39,759 nucleotides of DNA, taken from NCBI GenBank assembly GCA_011322135.1, contig DRNP01000044.1, positions 1 to 39,759 on the forward strand. The letters run 5' to 3'. This DNA is from Candidatus Kaiserbacteria bacterium (GTDB taxonomy: Bacteria; Patescibacteriota; Minisyncoccia; Phycocordibacterales; Phycocordibacteraceae). Position numbers and translations under genes: made by a program. Positions 21,348 to 27,411 of the stretch are shown in pieces. Positions within the stretch are counted from its first letter, which is position 1. Each line of letters opens with the position of its first letter. The notes under the pieces were generated by a model that did not search any database, was not told where the DNA came from, and saw nothing but the letters and a program-made list of their open reading frames with translations.

Positions 21348-22552
21348 CGACACTCGGCCACAGAAAGTATGTCTCTTTCTTTCATAAATACCACCATAAA
21401 CGCAACCGCCAAGAGCACAAGTGCAATAGATAAATATGCAAATTGCTCTGAAGCAAACAAAAGGACTGTCGCGGGCAACACTTTTGCTACAAACCTGCCC
21501 GCTTGATTTGAAGTGCTGTAAATCGGATATAATCGCTCTTCGTCTTCAGCTTTGCTAACAAGCGAAAAGAAAAAAGTATCCTGTATCGGTTCGACAAAAA
21601 GAGTTGCAACACCGGCAAAAGGAATAATCGCAAGCAACAAATACGCATTCCCGATAAAGCTTGCTCCAACAAGAATTATTACCATCAACATAAATCCAAG
21701 AACAAAAAACGGTTTAAACGCACGACTTCGTATAACTTTCCCGATTTTAAAATCAAAAAGTGCATGTATGAGCGCCATCACACTTATCGCACCCCCAATG
21801 TATGCCGGAGAAACACCTTTTTCCACCAAGAAGATCGGTATATAAATTACGATGAAACTGTTTATAACGTTCAAACCAAATCTTGTAGCATACGGATAGA
21901 TTAATTCCGGACGAATAAAATATCCATGTAGATTTTTAAAAACATTACCATCGATTTTTTTGAACTTTTTTTGCTTATAAAAAACATCACTAAATATCAA
22001 CATCAAAAGTGCCACAAAAAACATACCTGCAGTGAGTACGAAAACTAATGTAAAACCATATTGCGCGAGCAATAATCCTATAAGCACAGGAGCTATAAAC
22101 CACCCGAGGTTTACAAGTGCGAACATTAAACCCTCACGCTCCGGTAGTTTCTTGCGCGACGTCGTATCTCGAAACAATATTGCAAAACTTCCAAACCGAA
22201 GAGTTACAGCCGTGGCAACGCCACCCGCTAGGAAAAGAAAAACTATTTTGCTGGAGGAAAACCCTGCGATTAAATATGAAATCGTATATAAAAGCAAACT
22301 CAATATAAGCACCCTTCGCGGTCGAAAAAATTCGAGTATCGGTGTACTCCACAATGCTATGCCGAGTGACAACAAAACAGCAGCCCCTGTTACATATCCA
22401 ACTTCTGAATCTGAAAAACCAATATGGTGCATGTACAAACTCCATATTGTCGCAGCTGAAGCCGTGCCTAGCGAAAATACAAAACGAATAAGTGCAAGCT
22501 TATAATTTGTGTCTATATTGTGATACCTCTCTTTAACTAAAAGTGGAAACAT
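21344..22552 (-). CDS. MFS transporter
   Basis: About 12 hydrophobic segments in 402 aa. Confidence 0.75.
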   Translation of the reverse strand: MFPLLVKERYHNIDTNYKLALIRFVFSLGTASAATIWSLYMHHIGFSDSEVGYVTGAAVLLSLGIALWSTPILEFFRPRRVLILSLLLYTISYLIAGFSSSKIVFLFLAGGVATAVTLRFGSFAILFRDTTSRKKLPEREGLMFALVNLGWFIAPVLIGLLLAQYGFTLVFVLTAGMFFVALLMLIFSDVFYKQKKFKKIDGNVFKNLHGYFIRPELIYPYATRFGLNVINSFIVIYIPIFLVEKGVSPAYIGGAISVMALIHALFDFKIGKVIRSRAFKPFFVLGFMLMVIILVGASFIGNAYLLLAIIPFAGVATLFVEPIQDTFFFSLVSKAEDEERLYPIYSTSNQAGRFVAKVLPATVLLFASEQFAYLSIALVLLAVAFMVVFMKERDILSVAECR

Positions 22553-22663
22553 ATTTCATTTTGCTATTTTTTATTCCACACAATAATAACACGCAAAATA
22601 TAATTATTCCCAAACAGTCACTCCCCGTTACAAATTTATATTTTTAAAAAGTCTTTCAACCTT

Positions 22664-22734
22664 CTCGTCGTCACGTGCTCGCTCCGCTCGCACGGCTCTG
22701 CGACGACTCGGTTCGAATCCCACCGTCTCGCGCA
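22664..22734 (+). repeat. module half B1: 3' half of the 159-nt tRNA-Ser-derived module, with a variant hairpin
   Basis: Its last 35 nt are identical to B3. It contains ggttcgaatcccaccgtctc, an inverted copy of the last 20 nt before the final CG of the tRNA-Ser at 27327-27411. Confidence 0.8.
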
Positions 22735-22784
22735 AAAACATAATCGCACGACGCATTCGCGTCGCGCTCTTTGTTTTGCGGAGA
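22700..22784 (+). repeat. left 85-bp exact direct repeat (partner at 27248-27332)
   Basis: Compared by hand, base for base. Both copies end in gcggaga, the reverse complement of the tRNA-Ser 3' terminus. Confidence 0.9.
22746..22777 (+). terminator. intrinsic terminator after B1
   Basis: cgacgc-attc-gcgtcg hairpin followed by ctctttgtttt. Confidence 0.6.
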
Positions 22785-22876
22785 ACAAGTTATGGGCTTC
22801 GGTCACTCTCGCGGGTTTTTCTTTCACGCTTTGCGCTCATAAAAACCTCGCTCCATTGACCGCCACTCGTCGTCAC
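22778..22876 (+). repeat. module half A1: 5' half of the 159-nt module
   Basis: 99/99 identical to A3 (27124-27222) and 97/99 identical to A2. Confidence 0.85.
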
Positions 22877-22898
22877 GTGCTGGCTTGATAGTTTCGTG

Positions 22899-22907
22899 TG
22901 GTATAAT
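22899..22907 (+). promoter_or_regulatory. extended -10 promoter (TGgTATAAT) for the RT leader
   Basis: tgg at 22899-22901 plus TATAAT at 22902-22907. TTGATA lies 12 nt upstream, so it is not a canonical -35. Confidence 0.45.
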
Positions 22908-22913
22908 ACCAGA

Positions 22914-23425
22914 TACAGCACCTTGAAACAGAGTGAAGTAAGCTTCAACGAATCGTCCTGTTACAGAGCATTTGCTCAACATCCCTTGTCTCATCGGTGC
23001 ATGGGGATTTTGTTTGTTCAGGCGCGCCGTTCATTCGACGTGACTGCTAACACTAGCCTGCTCATTGAGCTCGTCTAAGTTTTAGCGGTATCCTGACAGG
23101 AGACATCAGTCATTAAGATTGACATATCCATCCGGCTACAAGCGGTAATCCGTGAGGACTGCTACTCGTCCTGGTGTAACGCTACTCAGGACGAGTAGTT
23201 GTGCCTTGCGAATTACATAGTTGTAGCCGTTACTAGAATGGTCTCACTGTTTAATTTTGCAACGAGTATGAACGACTTAAAAAATCGAACGACGTTTACT
23301 TCAAGCGTTACACACAGTGAGACGGCAATAAGTCAAATTCTTGAAGAATTTTCTCAAGATGGTGTGCAAAGCATTCACCGTTCAACTCTCTCGGGAGCTG
23401 ATCAAGGTGATACTGCGCGCCATTT
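22914..23425 (+). ncRNA. candidate structured non-coding leader / RT-associated ncRNA
   Basis: About 510 nt between the promoter and the RT gene, with only one weak small ORF. It contains a 97-nt three-helix hairpin (23133-23229) and a 10-bp long-range stem (23241-23250 with 23314-23323). Confidence 0.5.
23133..23229 (+). other. 97-nt compound hairpin (msd-like)
   Basis: Outer stem cggctacaa/ttgtagccg (9 bp), middle stem gtaat/attac (5 bp), and inner perfect 12-bp stem ctactcgtcctg/caggacgagtag with a 13-nt loop. Confidence 0.6.
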
Positions 23426-23447
23426 TTGGCGCATAGCCGTCTCTTAG
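23268..23447 (+). CDS. possible small ORF (59 aa) overlapping the RT frame
   Basis: ATG 23268 has only a weak SD. The stop TAG at 23445-23447 lies 5 nt before RT ATG 23453. The RT frame is already open from 23411. Confidence 0.25.
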   Translation: MNDLKNRTTFTSSVTHSETAISQILEEFSQDGVQSIHRSTLSGADQGDTARHFWRIAVS

Positions 23448-23452
23448 CGTAT

Positions 23453-24460
23453 ATGCGCAAACACTACACCCACAAACATCCAAAGTTAAACCTACGCACA
23501 GAAAAAGATCTGCTGCATTTTTTAAATGCCCGGAAGACCGTAAAACTCAAAGGCAAAACTGTCAGGAGGCAAGTAGCAACTAAGGATCTGTCATATCTCG
23601 ATAAAAACTCCCGCAGTGACTGGAACGATCACCCTTCAGAATCTAAGCCGGAAAATGGAAAATACGTTCGCTATATCAAACAGGGCTCGACACTAGATAT
23701 TTCAAACAGAAGGCTAAACGCCGCACTCAAACAAACTTTAGACAAGAAGGTGCCAAGCATATTCTACGGGTCAGTCTCGAAAAAAAGTCACATACAAGCC
23801 TCAAGGGCGCTGTGCAATGGGAAAAGCACCGTCATCATATCGCTGGACGTCACTAGATTCTTTGAGTCAGTGTCGCTGGCGCGAATCTTTAGGTTTTTTC
23901 GTAAAGCGGGATGTTCTACCGAGATAGCAGATATACTTGTCGAGCTCACCTGTGTACCTCTCGGTGCGAAAGAACATCCTCAGTCCGGCTTCTCAATCGC
24001 GCGCGGTTTCCCCACCTCACCGCGCCTAGCGCTGTGGGCAACATTCGAGATATTCGTGAAGTTAAATCGTATTTTACAAAAGCGTTATGGGCACTTGTCG
24101 CCAAAACTCGTGGTATTTGTGGATGATGTCGGTATTTCACTAAAGAACTCCACCCCAGAAGAGATAGAAGAAATAAAAGCACTTTCGTTTGAAACAATAG
24201 AGAGTGACAAAAATGGTATTCATTTAGTGGTACACAAGGAAGCTCCAAAGTTAAAAGTCCAGTCTATAGACCAAAATGCAGAACATCTCGGTCTTGTGAT
24301 AGGAAAAAATAGTTTGTCGCCAAGCTTTGAAACACGGCACAAAATAGGTTATGTGAAAGCTCAGCTAAGTAAGCAGACGTTATCGACTGAAAATCGGGAC
24401 AGAGCCCGAAAAAACAAACGTGGTTTAATGAACTACAAACGTTCGGTGTCCAATGGCTAG
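23453..24460 (+). CDS. RT-only reverse transcriptase (retron/Abi/UG-like); alternative TTG start at 23426
   Basis: RT1-2 GKYVRYIKQGSTLDISNRRLNAALKQTL; RT3 VIISLDVTRFFESV; RT4 ARGFPTSPRLA; RT5 VVFVDDVG (nt 24116-24127); RT7 HLGLVIG. No additional domain. Confidence 0.8.
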   Translation: MRKHYTHKHPKLNLRTEKDLLHFLNARKTVKLKGKTVRRQVATKDLSYLDKNSRSDWNDHPSESKPENGKYVRYIKQGSTLDISNRRLNAALKQTLDKKVPSIFYGSVSKKSHIQASRALCNGKSTVIISLDVTRFFESVSLARIFRFFRKAGCSTEIADILVELTCVPLGAKEHPQSGFSIARGFPTSPRLALWATFEIFVKLNRILQKRYGHLSPKLVVFVDDVGISLKNSTPEEIEEIKALSFETIESDKNGIHLVVHKEAPKLKVQSIDQNAEHLGLVIGKNSLSPSFETRHKIGYVKAQLSKQTLSTENRDRARKNKRGLMNYKRSVSNG

Positions 24461-24775
24461 CTAACGAGAATCTTTCTGATTTTTTACTATAAATATAGAG
24501 ACAAGAAAAATTAAAGTCGCGACCACATCAAAAAACTGCCACGTTCCTTTTTGTAGGTAGAATGGCGCTATTGGGTTGAACAGCACGGCAGTCAAACCAA
24601 ATGCTACTGTCCAGCCAATCCGCTCACTCTCATAGGTTTGATACGCACGATACAAGCCTATGCCACATACGACCCATCGCAGTAATTGAAAATATGAATA
24701 AGGCCAACTCAGTAACGCTCCAAATAAAAACAAAGTGGCAATAAGCGCAGACCAATTTTCCTTAAGACTTTTCAT
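24461..24775 (-). CDS. small polytopic membrane protein
   Basis: 104 aa with 3-4 hydrophobic segments and an AVLFNPIAPFYL..W..FDV motif. Its stop abuts the RT stop. Confidence 0.6.
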   Translation of the reverse strand: MKSLKENWSALIATLFLFGALLSWPYSYFQLLRWVVCGIGLYRAYQTYESERIGWTVAFGLTAVLFNPIAPFYLQKGTWQFFDVVATLIFLVSIFIVKNQKDSR

Positions 24776-24800
24776 GTTTTTTGCTCTCGACGCACAGCCC

Positions 24801-25433
24801 TTATGACTTTCTCATATCGACATCCTCTTCAATCTCCGGCAGAACACCAAAATCGTGAATCAATTTTTCTTCTGAGACGTCTTTTGAGCTAAGAGAATTG
24901 TCATAATCTTCTTTTAAGATTTGATAGCTTCCATACAACTTTTTAAATTCCTCTCTCGGGATGTGCCCATTAAACGAGCTACCATCTTTAAAAACAATAT
25001 CGTCGTGCATACTCTTAAGCTCCAGGTTCTCTTGATAGATATCCCAGCTTGGATAAACAGTGTTTATAAAAAGCCCTGCCCCTACGGTTTGAGCAGCTTC
25101 AAACATTTTTGCGTCCTTCTCTTTCTTAAGGAAGTCAAGAAAAATATAGAAGGCGCACTTTATATAATTCTTTGGATACGGTAGTAACGATCTAGGGACA
25201 AAACCTCGATACATCGCATGTATTTCGTCGATATTCATTTTGTTGAAATCGTTGAACTCCAGAAATACTTTTCGGGCAAGCGTATAGTTTGGCTCGTCAG
25301 CAGTAATTACACCCTGATCTTTTAGGCGGTTGTAAGTTTCAACCAATACCTCGACGGACACATCTTTCAAACTATCCTCTTTAGTCTCCTCGTACTTGAG
25401 GAAGTCGTGAATCTTTTTAAGTAACGCTTTCAT
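24801..25433 (-). CDS. hypothetical protein
   Basis: 210-aa acidic soluble ORF. No motif recognised. Confidence 0.55.
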   Translation of the reverse strand: MKALLKKIHDFLKYEETKEDSLKDVSVEVLVETYNRLKDQGVITADEPNYTLARKVFLEFNDFNKMNIDEIHAMYRGFVPRSLLPYPKNYIKCAFYIFLDFLKKEKDAKMFEAAQTVGAGLFINTVYPSWDIYQENLELKSMHDDIVFKDGSSFNGHIPREEFKKLYGSYQILKEDYDNSLSSKDVSEEKLIHDFGVLPEIEEDVDMRKS

Positions 25434-25440
25434 GGTTTAT

Positions 25441-25620
25441 TCAACGAATATAATCAAGAGCTTAGGCGATTTTGGAGAGAGTGTCAATCGTTGGATTTTG
25501 GTTCGTGCCATTTTCTATCTTTACAATGGTATTGAGAGACAAATCAGCAAGGCGGGCGACTCTCTCAAGAGAGTAACCTTTTTCGGCACGTATCTTTTTT
25601 TAATTATTCGCTATGCTCAT
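25441..25620 (-). pseudogene. XRE-family HTH regulator interrupted by two in-frame TAA codons
   Basis: Minus-strand translation: MSIANN*KKIRAEKGYSLERVARLADLSLNTIVKIENGTNQNPTIDTLSKIA*ALDYIR*. This is an otherwise intact HTH_3-type sequence with no frameshift. Confidence 0.7.
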
Positions 25621-25787
25621 GGTGAGATTATATAATTTAGTATATAGATTACAGTATAAAGTATGAAAGCTTTATATCTAAATTATAGCTGTTTATTACG
25701 ATTTTGCACTGAATGTGAGATGCATGGAGATAAATCCTTACAAATTCTATAAAAAGTAGTGTACGAAATGTGCGCTACTTTCATTTT

Positions 25788-25946
25788 GCGGAGAACAAGT
25801 TGTGGGCTTCGGTCACTCTCGCGGGTTTTTCTTTCACGCTTTGCGTTCATAAAAACCTCGCTCCATTGACCGCCACTCGTCGTCACTTGTTCGCTTTGCT
25901 CACAAGGCTTCGCGACGACTCGGTTCGAATTCCACCGTCTCGCGCA
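25788..25946 (+). repeat. module copy 2 (A2-B2), 159 nt
   Basis: It has 4 substitutions relative to copy 3. One of them (gccttg to gctttg) turns a C-G pair of the inner hairpin into a U-G pair. Confidence 0.85.
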
Positions 25947-26127
25947 AAAGCACACTCTTAAACGTTCTTCTTTTATTGTTTTTATATATATGCCAACACC
26001 AACACATTACCGTGTCGGGCAAAAACCGCCATATGTGTGTATACATTACCAATTCTACTTGACTTATAGCTACCGGTCGATATACTGGAAATATATCTAT
26101 GAAAAGGCACTTCGTACGGGCGCGTCC

Positions 26128-27083: not shown

Positions 27084-27123
27084 AGAGCACGACGCGCCTT
27101 CGGCGCGTCGTGCTCTTTGTTTT
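27084..27123 (+). terminator. strong hairpin plus T-run preceding module copy 3
   Basis: agagcacgacgcgcc-ttc-ggcgcgtcgtgctct followed by ttgtttt. It is preceded by a degenerate B-like remnant (about 27029-27067). Confidence 0.6.
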
Positions 27124-27282
27124 GCGGAGAACAAGTTATGGGCTTCGGTCACTCTCGCGGGTTTTTCTTTCACGCTTTGCGCTCATAAAAACCTCGCTCC
27201 ATTGACCGCCACTCGTCGTCACTTGTTCGCCTTGCTCACAAGGCTTCGCGACGACTCGGTTCGAATCCCACCGTCTCGCGCA
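27124..27282 (+). repeat. module copy 3 (A3-B3), 159 nt, intact
   Basis: It starts GCGGAGA and ends TCTCGCGCA, a possible end-pairing. It has internal stems GAACAAG/CTTGTTC, GGGTTTTT/AAAAACCT, GTCGTC/GACGAC and GCCTTG/CAAGGC. Confidence 0.85.
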
Positions 27283-27293
27283 AAAACATAATC

Positions 27294-27325: not shown

Positions 27326-27326
27326 G

Positions 27327-27411
27327 CGGAGACGGTGGGATTCGAACCCACGAGGGTGTTAACCCTACTTCGTTAGCAGTGAAGCGCTTTCGACCACTCA
27401 GCCACGTCTCC
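27327..27411 (-). tRNA. tRNA-Ser (anticodon GCT), class II with long variable arm, no encoded CCA
   Basis: Manual fold: GGAGACG acceptor, anticodon loop CTGCTAA, variable arm TAGGGTTAACACCCTCG, and T-arm GTGGG-TTCGAAT-CCCAC. Confidence 0.9.

Follow-up and report, generated by a model that had tools for sequence, protein, structure and literature searches.

A conserved leader RNA with a hairpin loop-to-ORF pseudoknot upstream of the reverse transcriptase of a probable type VI-like retron in Patescibacteria

A reverse transcriptase (RT) gene of Candidatus Kaiserbacteria bacterium, a member of the Patescibacteria (Candidate Phyla Radiation, CPR), is preceded by a long structured leader that includes a small open reading frame (ORF) ending next to the RT start. 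The gene lies on contig DRNP01000044.1 (assembly GCA_011322135.1), and the window analysed here is this one contig (39,759 nt), which belongs to a genome of 657 kb that is 95% complete; the relatives of the window genes bear Patescibacteria (CPR) names. The original prediction, made from the sequence alone, described two large RNA structures in the leader, a long hairpin (H1) and an adjacent stem-enclosed domain (H2), but overlooked the ORF of 59 codons at 23268-23447. From 5' to 3' the RNA consists of two small hairpins, a variable linker, H1, H2, a further closed arm (arm 3) and the RT start (Table 1).

Table 1. Features of the leader and the RT gene in the window
Feature	Positions	Strand	Basis
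Probable promoter, TG-n-TATAAT (extended -10)	22899..22907	+	sequence; TATAAT at the same place in L001, L002 and L003
5' domain, two small hairpins	22911..23035	+	nhmmer, RNAalifold
Variable linker with small hairpin	23036..23132	+	poorly conserved in alignments
H1, 97-nt long hairpin, probable msd-like RT template	23133..23229	+	folding, conservation
Pseudoknot 5' strand GTGTAACGCT, in the H1 apical loop	23174..23183	+	complementarity, covariation
H2 5' strand GTCTCACTGT	23241..23250	+	folding, conservation
Small ORF, 59 codons (MNDLKNR...RIAVS*), counterpart of the type VI 'SP' ORF	23268..23447	+	conservation
Pseudoknot 3' strand AGCGTTACAC, ORF codons 13-15 and one base of codon 16	23304..23313	+	complementarity, covariation
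H2 3' strand ACAGTGAGAC, abutting the pseudoknot strand, 5-nt overlap with the arm-3 5' strand	23314..23323	+	folding, conservation
Arm-3 closing helix, 5' strand GAGACGGC	23319..23326	+	covariation, duplex energy
Arm-3 closing helix, 3' strand GCCGTCTC, ending one base before the ORF stop	23436..23443	+	covariation, duplex energy
Reverse transcriptase, 335 aa, catalytic FVDD	23453..24460	+	PADLOC RT_VI, Pfam RVT_1

Relatives of the locus were found mainly by an alignment-based scan, which gave 43 loci, nearly all in metagenome-assembled genomes (MAGs) of Patescibacteria, and hence 44 rows when the window is included. The window RT has 15 homologues besides itself. A single-protein scan of genome contigs recovered no close relatives, a metagenome scan gave only L045 (scoring the same as L003 in the leader region), a scan of viral contigs gave none, and tblastn of a relative's RT against plasmids produced no match at 1e-8. 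Three loci (L001, L002 and L003) form a clade with the window, and their RTs are 68, 65 and 54% identical to that of the window.

Within this clade, nucleotide conservation begins directly after TATAAT and continues to the RT start codon, with a mean column identity of 72% over the leader. Because conservation is unbroken from the TATAAT box to the RT start, H1 and H2 are modules of one conserved leader of about 540 nt (~22913-23452, + strand), and the RNA would start near 22913. The TGnTATAAT site was not listed in a scan for sigma-70 consensus promoters, which demands a -35 match, and the -35 is poor here. When the window-clade leader was searched with nhmmer, only four close loci were retrieved and the distant loci remained unmatched in sequence. 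Despite this divergence, the distant loci share the plan of the leader: 5' hairpins, a variable stretch, a long hairpin, a short spacer and a helix-closed small ORF. The 5' domain likewise matches only close relatives with nhmmer (E 6e-38 to 3e-30). Its first hairpin pairs GAGC at 22966-22969 with GCTC at 22974-22977 and the second spans 22981-23008; both are paired with compensatory changes in the RNAalifold consensus, and hairpins at corresponding positions are visible in the distant clade. A role like that of msr, in RT binding or recognition, is suggested for this domain. Rfam gave no family for 22000-25000 at E up to 1, and only three tRNAs in the whole window.

The segment carrying H1 and H2 (23133-23323) has a minimum free energy (MFE) of -77.6 kcal/mol, compared with -47.3 +/- 4.6 for 200 dinucleotide shuffles, none of which folds as well (z = -6.64). 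Both structures are also kept in L001-L003, in agreement with the original prediction that such helices exceed chance. Since the minus strand folds equally well (z = -8.66), the strand of the RNA is not given by energy alone; we assign it to the + strand because the conserved helices contain G-U pairs, the conserved ORFs are on that strand and a -10 box lies upstream. It is scarcely credible that the helices are chance inverted repeats, or repeats of a mobile element or of tRNA-Ser-like type (att sites, terminators) outside the RNA of the RT operon. Such an origin would account for an island lying between copies of a tRNA-Ser-like repeat, for the match of the heptamer GAGACGG to the acceptor strand of tRNA-Ser and for the folding of the minus strand, but not for the outcome of the shuffles, and the helices travel with the RT across unrelated genomic contexts without shared neighbours, with G-U and compensatory changes that fit + strand RNA only and with GAGACGG variants that are compensated in cis.

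H1 folds as the original prediction had it: its MFE structure has an outer helix of 9 bp, a helix of 5 bp, additional interrupted pairs and a perfect core of 12 bp (23162-23173 with 23187-23198), which a repeat search listed as well. Alone it reaches -56.7 kcal/mol (z = -9.48), and in L001, L002 and L003 its cells are paired at 96.7% (outer part) and 88.7% (inner part). A long hairpin of 84-149 nt occurs at the same place in all 29 loci analysed, and each of the 12 that were folded has z between -4.1 and -10.6. H1 is the sole long hairpin of the family leader, and it is probably the msd-like template of the RT, since the complementary DNA (cDNA) of studied type VI retrons comes from such a hairpin. 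Two copies of GCTACTC lie at 23161-23167 and 23181-23187, where they had been reported, but the alternative register that they were thought to allow finds no comparative support: the loop differs in L003, and the conserved partner of the loop is the ORF.

This partnership is a pseudoknot. The apical loop of H1 (23174-23183) is perfectly complementary over 10 nt to 23304-23313 in the small ORF, immediately 5' of the 3' strand of H2. For the comparison across loci, the 3' 8-mer was anchored by a peptide motif and not by complementarity, and its partner was sought in the 175 upstream bases of the same locus (L027, with too little upstream sequence, and L031 are outside the counts). A partner pairing at 8/8 positions was present in 28 of 29 loci and one pairing at 7/8 in the remaining locus (L003); the partner always sits at the apex of the long hairpin, 82-113 nt upstream of the ORF start. 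The 3' 8-mer comes in 18 versions, and of 690 non-cognate combinations only 38 pair at 8/8. In A6, a MAFFT alignment of the 29 loci in which one locus is off by a base, pairing holds in 97.4% of 232 cells, and each of the eight pairs shows changes on both sides (52 cells); no shuffle out of 500 does as well, and in slid controls 32-48% of cells pair. The pseudoknot is also present in all five of the further loci whose upstream sequence is long enough, which add three more sequence variants. Nine of the cells are G-U, and because these fit no other strand, the pairing is one of + strand RNA only. The pseudoknot between the H1 loop and the ORF is therefore evolutionarily maintained, and it is the strongest new result of our survey.

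The stem next to it, H2, is a perfect helix of 10 bp as described in the original prediction, and encloses the initiation region of the small ORF together with its first 15 codons. The start codon sits in the enclosed loop and not in the stem (mean predicted unpaired probability 0.38 for 23258-23273). H2 is paired in 87.5% of cells in the window clade, with one compensatory pair. Across the 29 loci an H2-like helix has weak support, its 5' strand lying a short way before the ORF start and its 3' strand after codon 15 (cognate -12.8 vs non-cognate -10.9 kcal/mol; 0/1000 permutations), weaker than arm 3. As H2 encloses the start of a conserved ORF, it is probably not a template or primer element; the proposal that these structures serve in this way holds for the leader of a retron-type RT and for H1 as the likely kind of cDNA source, not for H2. 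The direct repeat GAACGAC lies where it had been noted inside the H2 loop, at 23270-23276 and 23287-23293 (ORF codons 1-3 and 7-9), and L001 carries ATGATT twice at the places of the two copies.

Arm 3 closes the body of the small ORF. Its closing helix is paired in all 32 cells of the window clade, with compensatory changes at three of eight pairs, and over the 29 loci cognate strands reach -21.7 vs -12.7 kcal/mol for non-cognate strands (0/1000 permutations as low); a strong ORF-closing helix that ends at the stop codon is present in the distant loci as well. Because H2 and arm 3 share 5 nt (23319-23323), they cannot both be complete. Position 23322, an A in the window and a G in the three relatives, covaries both with 23242 in H2 and with 23440 in arm 3. 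The predicted ground state in the window is the H2 fold (-70.0 kcal/mol, vs -65.6 with arm 3 forced, a difference of 4.4 kcal/mol). From these comparisons, H2 is maintained and competes with arm 3. The heptamer GAGACGG was originally placed one base off, at 23320-23326 instead of 23319-23325, while its complementarity to CCGTCTC at 23437-23443 and to the 3' acceptor strand of tRNA-Ser(GCT) (tRNA at 27326-27411, minus strand) is real. It reads GAGGCGG or GAGGCAG in relatives, with the change compensated in cis, and since it covaries with its cis partner beside the ORF stop, the match to tRNA-Ser is probably coincidental.

The small ORF itself starts inside the H2 loop, stops with TAG at 23445-23447 and ends 5 nt before the RT ATG. 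L001, L002 and L003 keep it open over 58-59 codons, and all indels among the four sequences are multiples of three. Its frame is free of stops in 34 of 34 measured loci, in contrast to the other two frames, which are never open and average 2.9 and 5.5 stops; hence the reading frame is maintained by evolution. In distant loci a small ORF of 44-59 codons is found just upstream of a helix-turn-helix (HTH) gene in 27 of the 30 examined, and further small ORFs are present in L009, L011, L015, L036, L039 and L031, while L033 is without one. The peptide has no Pfam or PADLOC match, and its conserved residues coincide with RNA helices. Translation of the ORF may be what counts, rather than the peptide made. 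In L018 (3420-3680) the ORF is broken by a stop beside a T/A run with the arm-3 helix intact, which is either an assembly error or a locus keeping only the RNA.

The next gene, RT in the window and HTH elsewhere, starts 4-27 nt after the ORF stop and lacks a Shine-Dalgarno sequence in 28 of 29 loci, and both features fit translational coupling. They also suit a different view, in which the whole leader does no more than control translation of the RT in cis: ribosomes translating the small ORF, a leader or upstream ORF on this view, would open arm 3 and be coupled into the RT gene, with H1, H2 and the pseudoknot tuning the coupling, H1 not being copied and the peptide having no function. The 3' strand of arm 3 lies over the stretch immediately before the RT start, and changes in the small ORF show no excess at third codon positions although its frame is always open. 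We nevertheless regard it as unlikely, because it leaves a conserved, near-perfect hairpin of 84-149 nt with its loop tied to the ORF unexplained; the studied relatives, as described in the main texts on them, have cDNA from the long stem-loop and a toxic small protein, and Shine-Dalgarno use is low throughout these loci, which makes its absence weak evidence.

The RT points to retrons of type VI. Among PADLOC families its best match is RT_VI (7.6e-26, 89 bits; next family 45.8 bits), which is an HMM ranking only, and RT_VI is the best family for all six RTs tested from the window clade and the distant clade. The catalytic FVDD is kept and the RT ORF is intact in nine homologues that are 54-100% identical. 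DRT2, whose RT is reported to be bound to a neighbouring pseudoknotted noncoding RNA (ncRNA) (PMC12039810), resembles the window in having an RT with a structured, pseudoknotted upstream RNA, and a repeat-bounded part of the leader could in principle be copied by rolling circle into a concatemer encoding a stop-free gene. The concatemer check called for by the original prediction covered 31 repeat-bounded units and revealed nothing convincing: eight stop-free frames come from five units, which are 57, 78 or 210 nt long, divisible by three, and either short enough for chance or coincident with the small ORF frame, and the hexamers at their borders do not belong to what is conserved in the leader. 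With no DRT2 model among the best 25 of 34 PADLOC families and RT_VI far ahead, with the type VI gene order in the relatives and with no rolling-circle template evidence, a DRT2-like system is extremely improbable here; the window differs from DRT2 in RT family and gene order.

The strongest RT_VI HMM match in 301 Patescibacteria genomes lies elsewhere, in L054 (G247:C113, RT at 1486-2451; 183 bits). This RT has the motifs NAKKH, YADD and VTGL, and is preceded by a 234-aa ORF with a spacer of only ~140 nt; no HTH or small ORF was seen, and L054 is probably another retron type.

The gene order of the distant relatives gives a second line of evidence for type VI. Of the 44 rows, 35 have an XRE-type HTH ORF of ~107 aa adjoining or overlapping the RT, so that 35 distant CPR loci show small ORF, XRE-HTH and RT in the order ncRNA, SP, HTH, RT known for type VI (Zhang et al. 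2025, bioRxiv 10.1101/2025.10.22.683967, main text). The HMM of the clade HTH was built from 27 of these 35 ORFs, and the other eight are independent detections. Pfam HTH_3 matches eight of eight HTH ORFs tested, and PADLOC HTH_VI matches that of L004 (2.4e-13), a model that is unspecific, with matches in 13 of 14 control genomes. No HTH was found beside the RT in the window, L001, L002, L003 or L039 by tblastn and the clade HMM, and the small ORF of the window was also searched with Pfam and PADLOC. The HTH could not be judged in L010 and L042 (no upstream sequence) or in L014 (N-masked where it would lie), and L041 has a weak, displaced match. The window clade has the type VI arrangement without the HTH.

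An RT tree was built from 40 rows, without the partial or masked L010, L014, L041 and L042 and without the duplicates L034, L044 and L045. The window and its three close relatives group together in it (support 100/100) on a branch of 2.79 changes per column. L039 nests among HTH-bearing loci of Saccharibacteria, apart from the window clade, which implies two or more changes for the HTH-less state. The branch leading to the outgroup is very long, and the tree does not settle loss of the HTH against original absence; loss in the window clade is the simpler reading, as type VI retrons of other phyla mostly carry an HTH.

L039 (3680-3986; Candidatus Saccharibacteria) is thus an independent HTH-less locus, with a small ORF of up to 68 codons that ends 8 nt before the RT and with a loop-to-ORF pairing of different sequence. 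The small ORF of both HTH-less lineages exceeds the usual length of ~48 codons. A near-perfect palindrome of ~15 nt lies between the -35 and -10 of the leader promoter in the HTH-bearing L006, L023, L024, L025, L030 and others (alignment A5, columns ~101-140), a candidate operator for the HTH; it is absent from the promoter of the window clade. Four loci (L017, L018, L027 and L036) bear MAG labels of Bdellovibrionota or Gammaproteobacteria while their RTs nest among Patescibacteria, which points to binning errors or transfer between epibiont and host.

The absence of the HTH could also mean that the window clade is a decaying type VI retron, no longer functional, with the hairpins as leftovers. 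The very long RT branch would agree with this, as would a broken XRE-type HTH ORF 1 kb downstream of the RT (25453-25614, minus strand; in-frame TAA stops; HTH_VI HMM 1.5e-8), an ORF not conserved in L001-L003. Decay is very unlikely in our view, given that the RT ORF with its FVDD is intact in all nine homologues, that the leader is better conserved than the protein and has compensatory changes in its helices inside the clade, that the small ORF stays open with indels in threes, and that the second HTH-less lineage, L039, keeps both the ORF and the pseudoknot.

We compared the locus with type VI retrons that have been studied. In Vpa2, as given in the main text of its preprint, the multicopy single-stranded DNA (msDNA) maps to the long stem-loop and derepresses translation of the small protein (SP), and a 7-nt direct repeat in the msd loop and in the riboregulator loop is proposed to let the cDNA pair with the riboregulator (bioRxiv 10.1101/2025.10.22.683967). 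The window resembles this account of Vpa2 in having a structured RNA of ~470-540 nt upstream of the RT with a long stem-loop and a small ORF, an ORF initiation region that may be shut inside stems, an ORF body forming a separate closed arm, and an RT assigned to RT_VI by HMM. It differs from Vpa2 in lacking an HTH between ORF and RT, in its CPR host and in its weak RT_VI match (89 bits), and is known here from sequence alone. Repeats of the Vpa2 type are absent: the longest word shared by hairpin apex and initiation region averages 5.86 nt in cognate vs 5.87 nt in non-cognate pairs, and shared words of at least 7 nt occur in 8 of 29 cognate vs 169 of 812 non-cognate pairs. In place of direct repeats, the hairpin loop of the window is complementary to the ORF itself.

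For the Sen3 lineage, the main text of Garcia-Rodriguez et al. (2026, bioRxiv 10.64898/2026.04.27.721009) describes an SP coding region under RNA-structure selection and joined to the ncRNA by long-range pairing, and a long internal stem-loop in Sen3/cl2075 as candidate cDNA source. The window shares with it the long stem-loop, the selection on RNA structure in the SP region and the long-range pairing between ncRNA and SP. The pairing is a different one, however: IR1-IR2 of Sen3 connects the 3' portion of the long stem-loop with a sequence downstream of the SP stop, with no significant covariation in that account, whereas the apical loop of the window hairpin pairs with codons 13-15 and covaries at all eight positions. 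A Sen3-like pairing of 23001-23028 with 23446-23473 is possible in the window, L001 and L002 (-18 to -22 kcal/mol), but pairing of the 5' domain with the post-stop region has no family-wide support (cognate -12.9 vs non-cognate -13.2 kcal/mol; 709/1000 permutations as low). A further difference is that the HTH of Sen3 is described there as an essential antitoxin.

The presence of type VI in the phylum is already on record, since Retron-Cle1 of Candidatus Levybacteria (Mestre-729) is a type VI retron of a CPR organism in the census of Khan et al., as cited in the main text of 10.64898/2026.04.27.721009, which reports no detectable ssDNA for it in E. coli. Among the catalogued type VI entries, ~78% have a Cro/C1-type HTH upstream of or overlapping the RT and ~22% have no annotated HTH. 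Already known, then, are type VI retrons with their hybrid RNA, a CPR organism that carries one, and entries without an HTH. New, as far as the main texts show, are a coherent clade that lacks the HTH and has its ORF next to the RT, the loop-to-ORF pseudoknot proven by covariation, and the alternative between H2 and arm 3. The main texts of both type VI preprints contain neither 'pseudoknot' nor 'kissing', although their figures or supplements may already show the pairing, and literature searches for retron with Patescibacteria and for retron pseudoknot or msd returned nothing on such pairing.

Taken together, we consider it likely that the leader represents a 'hybrid RNA' of type VI-like kind: H1 would serve as template, and H2 with the pseudoknot would act as riboregulator for the ORF. 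Analogy with Vpa2 suggests both the template role and the switch. At rest, the pseudoknot stacked on H2 would hold the start region of the ORF shut. Upon a phage cue the RT would copy H1, so that the loop strand enters an RNA/DNA hybrid or is removed by RNase H; the pseudoknot would then dissolve and H2 yield to arm 3. The small ORF could now be translated and serve as an effector, couple translation into the RT gene, which lacks a Shine-Dalgarno sequence, or do both. As the window clade has no HTH repressor or antitoxin gene, control would rest on the RNA alone.

Several observations weigh against this proposal. Its weakest link is the step from loss of the pseudoknot to the switch: the pseudoknot and arm 3 share no bases, and it is from stacking only that we infer that pseudoknot loss favours arm 3. 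The two clades also differ thermodynamically, H2 being favoured in the window and the arm-3 duplex being much stronger in most distant loci. The coding signature of the small ORF is weak (codon-position differences 218:183:174; 65 synonymous vs 293 non-synonymous among the changed codons), and a strong Shine-Dalgarno sequence precedes it in only 6 of 29 loci, against a background of 13%, and not in the window. The HTH is required for viability or repression in Vpa2 and Sen3 according to the main texts, and a system without it may work differently. Finally, the window RT is divergent, as its 89 bits on RT_VI indicate. The motifs NAxxH and VTG are hallmarks of retron RTs, and the window RT, inspected by eye, has neither, reading KSHIQAS and EHLGLVIG where they would be expected. 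Canonical retrons have an msr-msd RNA with a1/a2 inverted repeats and a branching G, and a long hairpin as template. The window resembles them in an RT preceded by structured RNA with a long hairpin, and differs in that the ORF is embedded in the RNA, the two motifs are missing and no a1/a2-like priming duplex with family-wide support was found, either around H1 or between the two ends of the RNA; nor is there support for a helix that would enclose H1 from its two flanks (-10.3 vs -9.8 kcal/mol; 168/1000 permutations as low).

Outside the leader and the RT, the window and the other loci have no neighbour genes in common. The DUF6804 gene (24461-24775, minus strand) and a 210-aa ORF are therefore not counted as parts of the system. 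A unit of ~170 nt is present three times in the window (22664-22947, 25784-25952 and 27120-27290) and also in the G000 contigs C43, C27, C5 and C17, with nine matches in the 657-kb genome. Its copies end in 20 nt identical to the 3' part of the T-arm/acceptor of tRNA-Ser(GCT), on the strand opposite to the tRNA gene, and each copy has a hairpin that covaries between copies. Both the island with the RT (~22885-25783) and a second small island lie between such copies, and the unit may represent either an integration target or the gene of a tRNA-like RNA.

The link from reverse transcription to the toxic small protein in type VI retrons is an open question on which two recent preprints conflict, and a contact between the presumed template hairpin and the ORF that covaries at every position offers a concrete, mutable and testable mechanism. 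It occurs in a coherent retron-like family of very small CPR genomes, where defence systems are sparse. In the window clade and L039 the system persists without the HTH that is essential in two studied retrons, which raises the question of what replaces it. One tentative and rather doubtful answer is that the CPR lineage has a minimal retron free of a protein repressor, in which reverse transcription acts like the ligand of a riboswitch: copying of H1 would remove the loop strand, flip H2 to arm 3 and turn on the small ORF, and with it the RT by coupling. If so, translation of the small ORF coupled to the RT would give positive feedback, and the pseudoknot in the 30-odd HTH-bearing CPR relatives would be a general control element of type VI, unlike the direct-repeat model of Vpa2.

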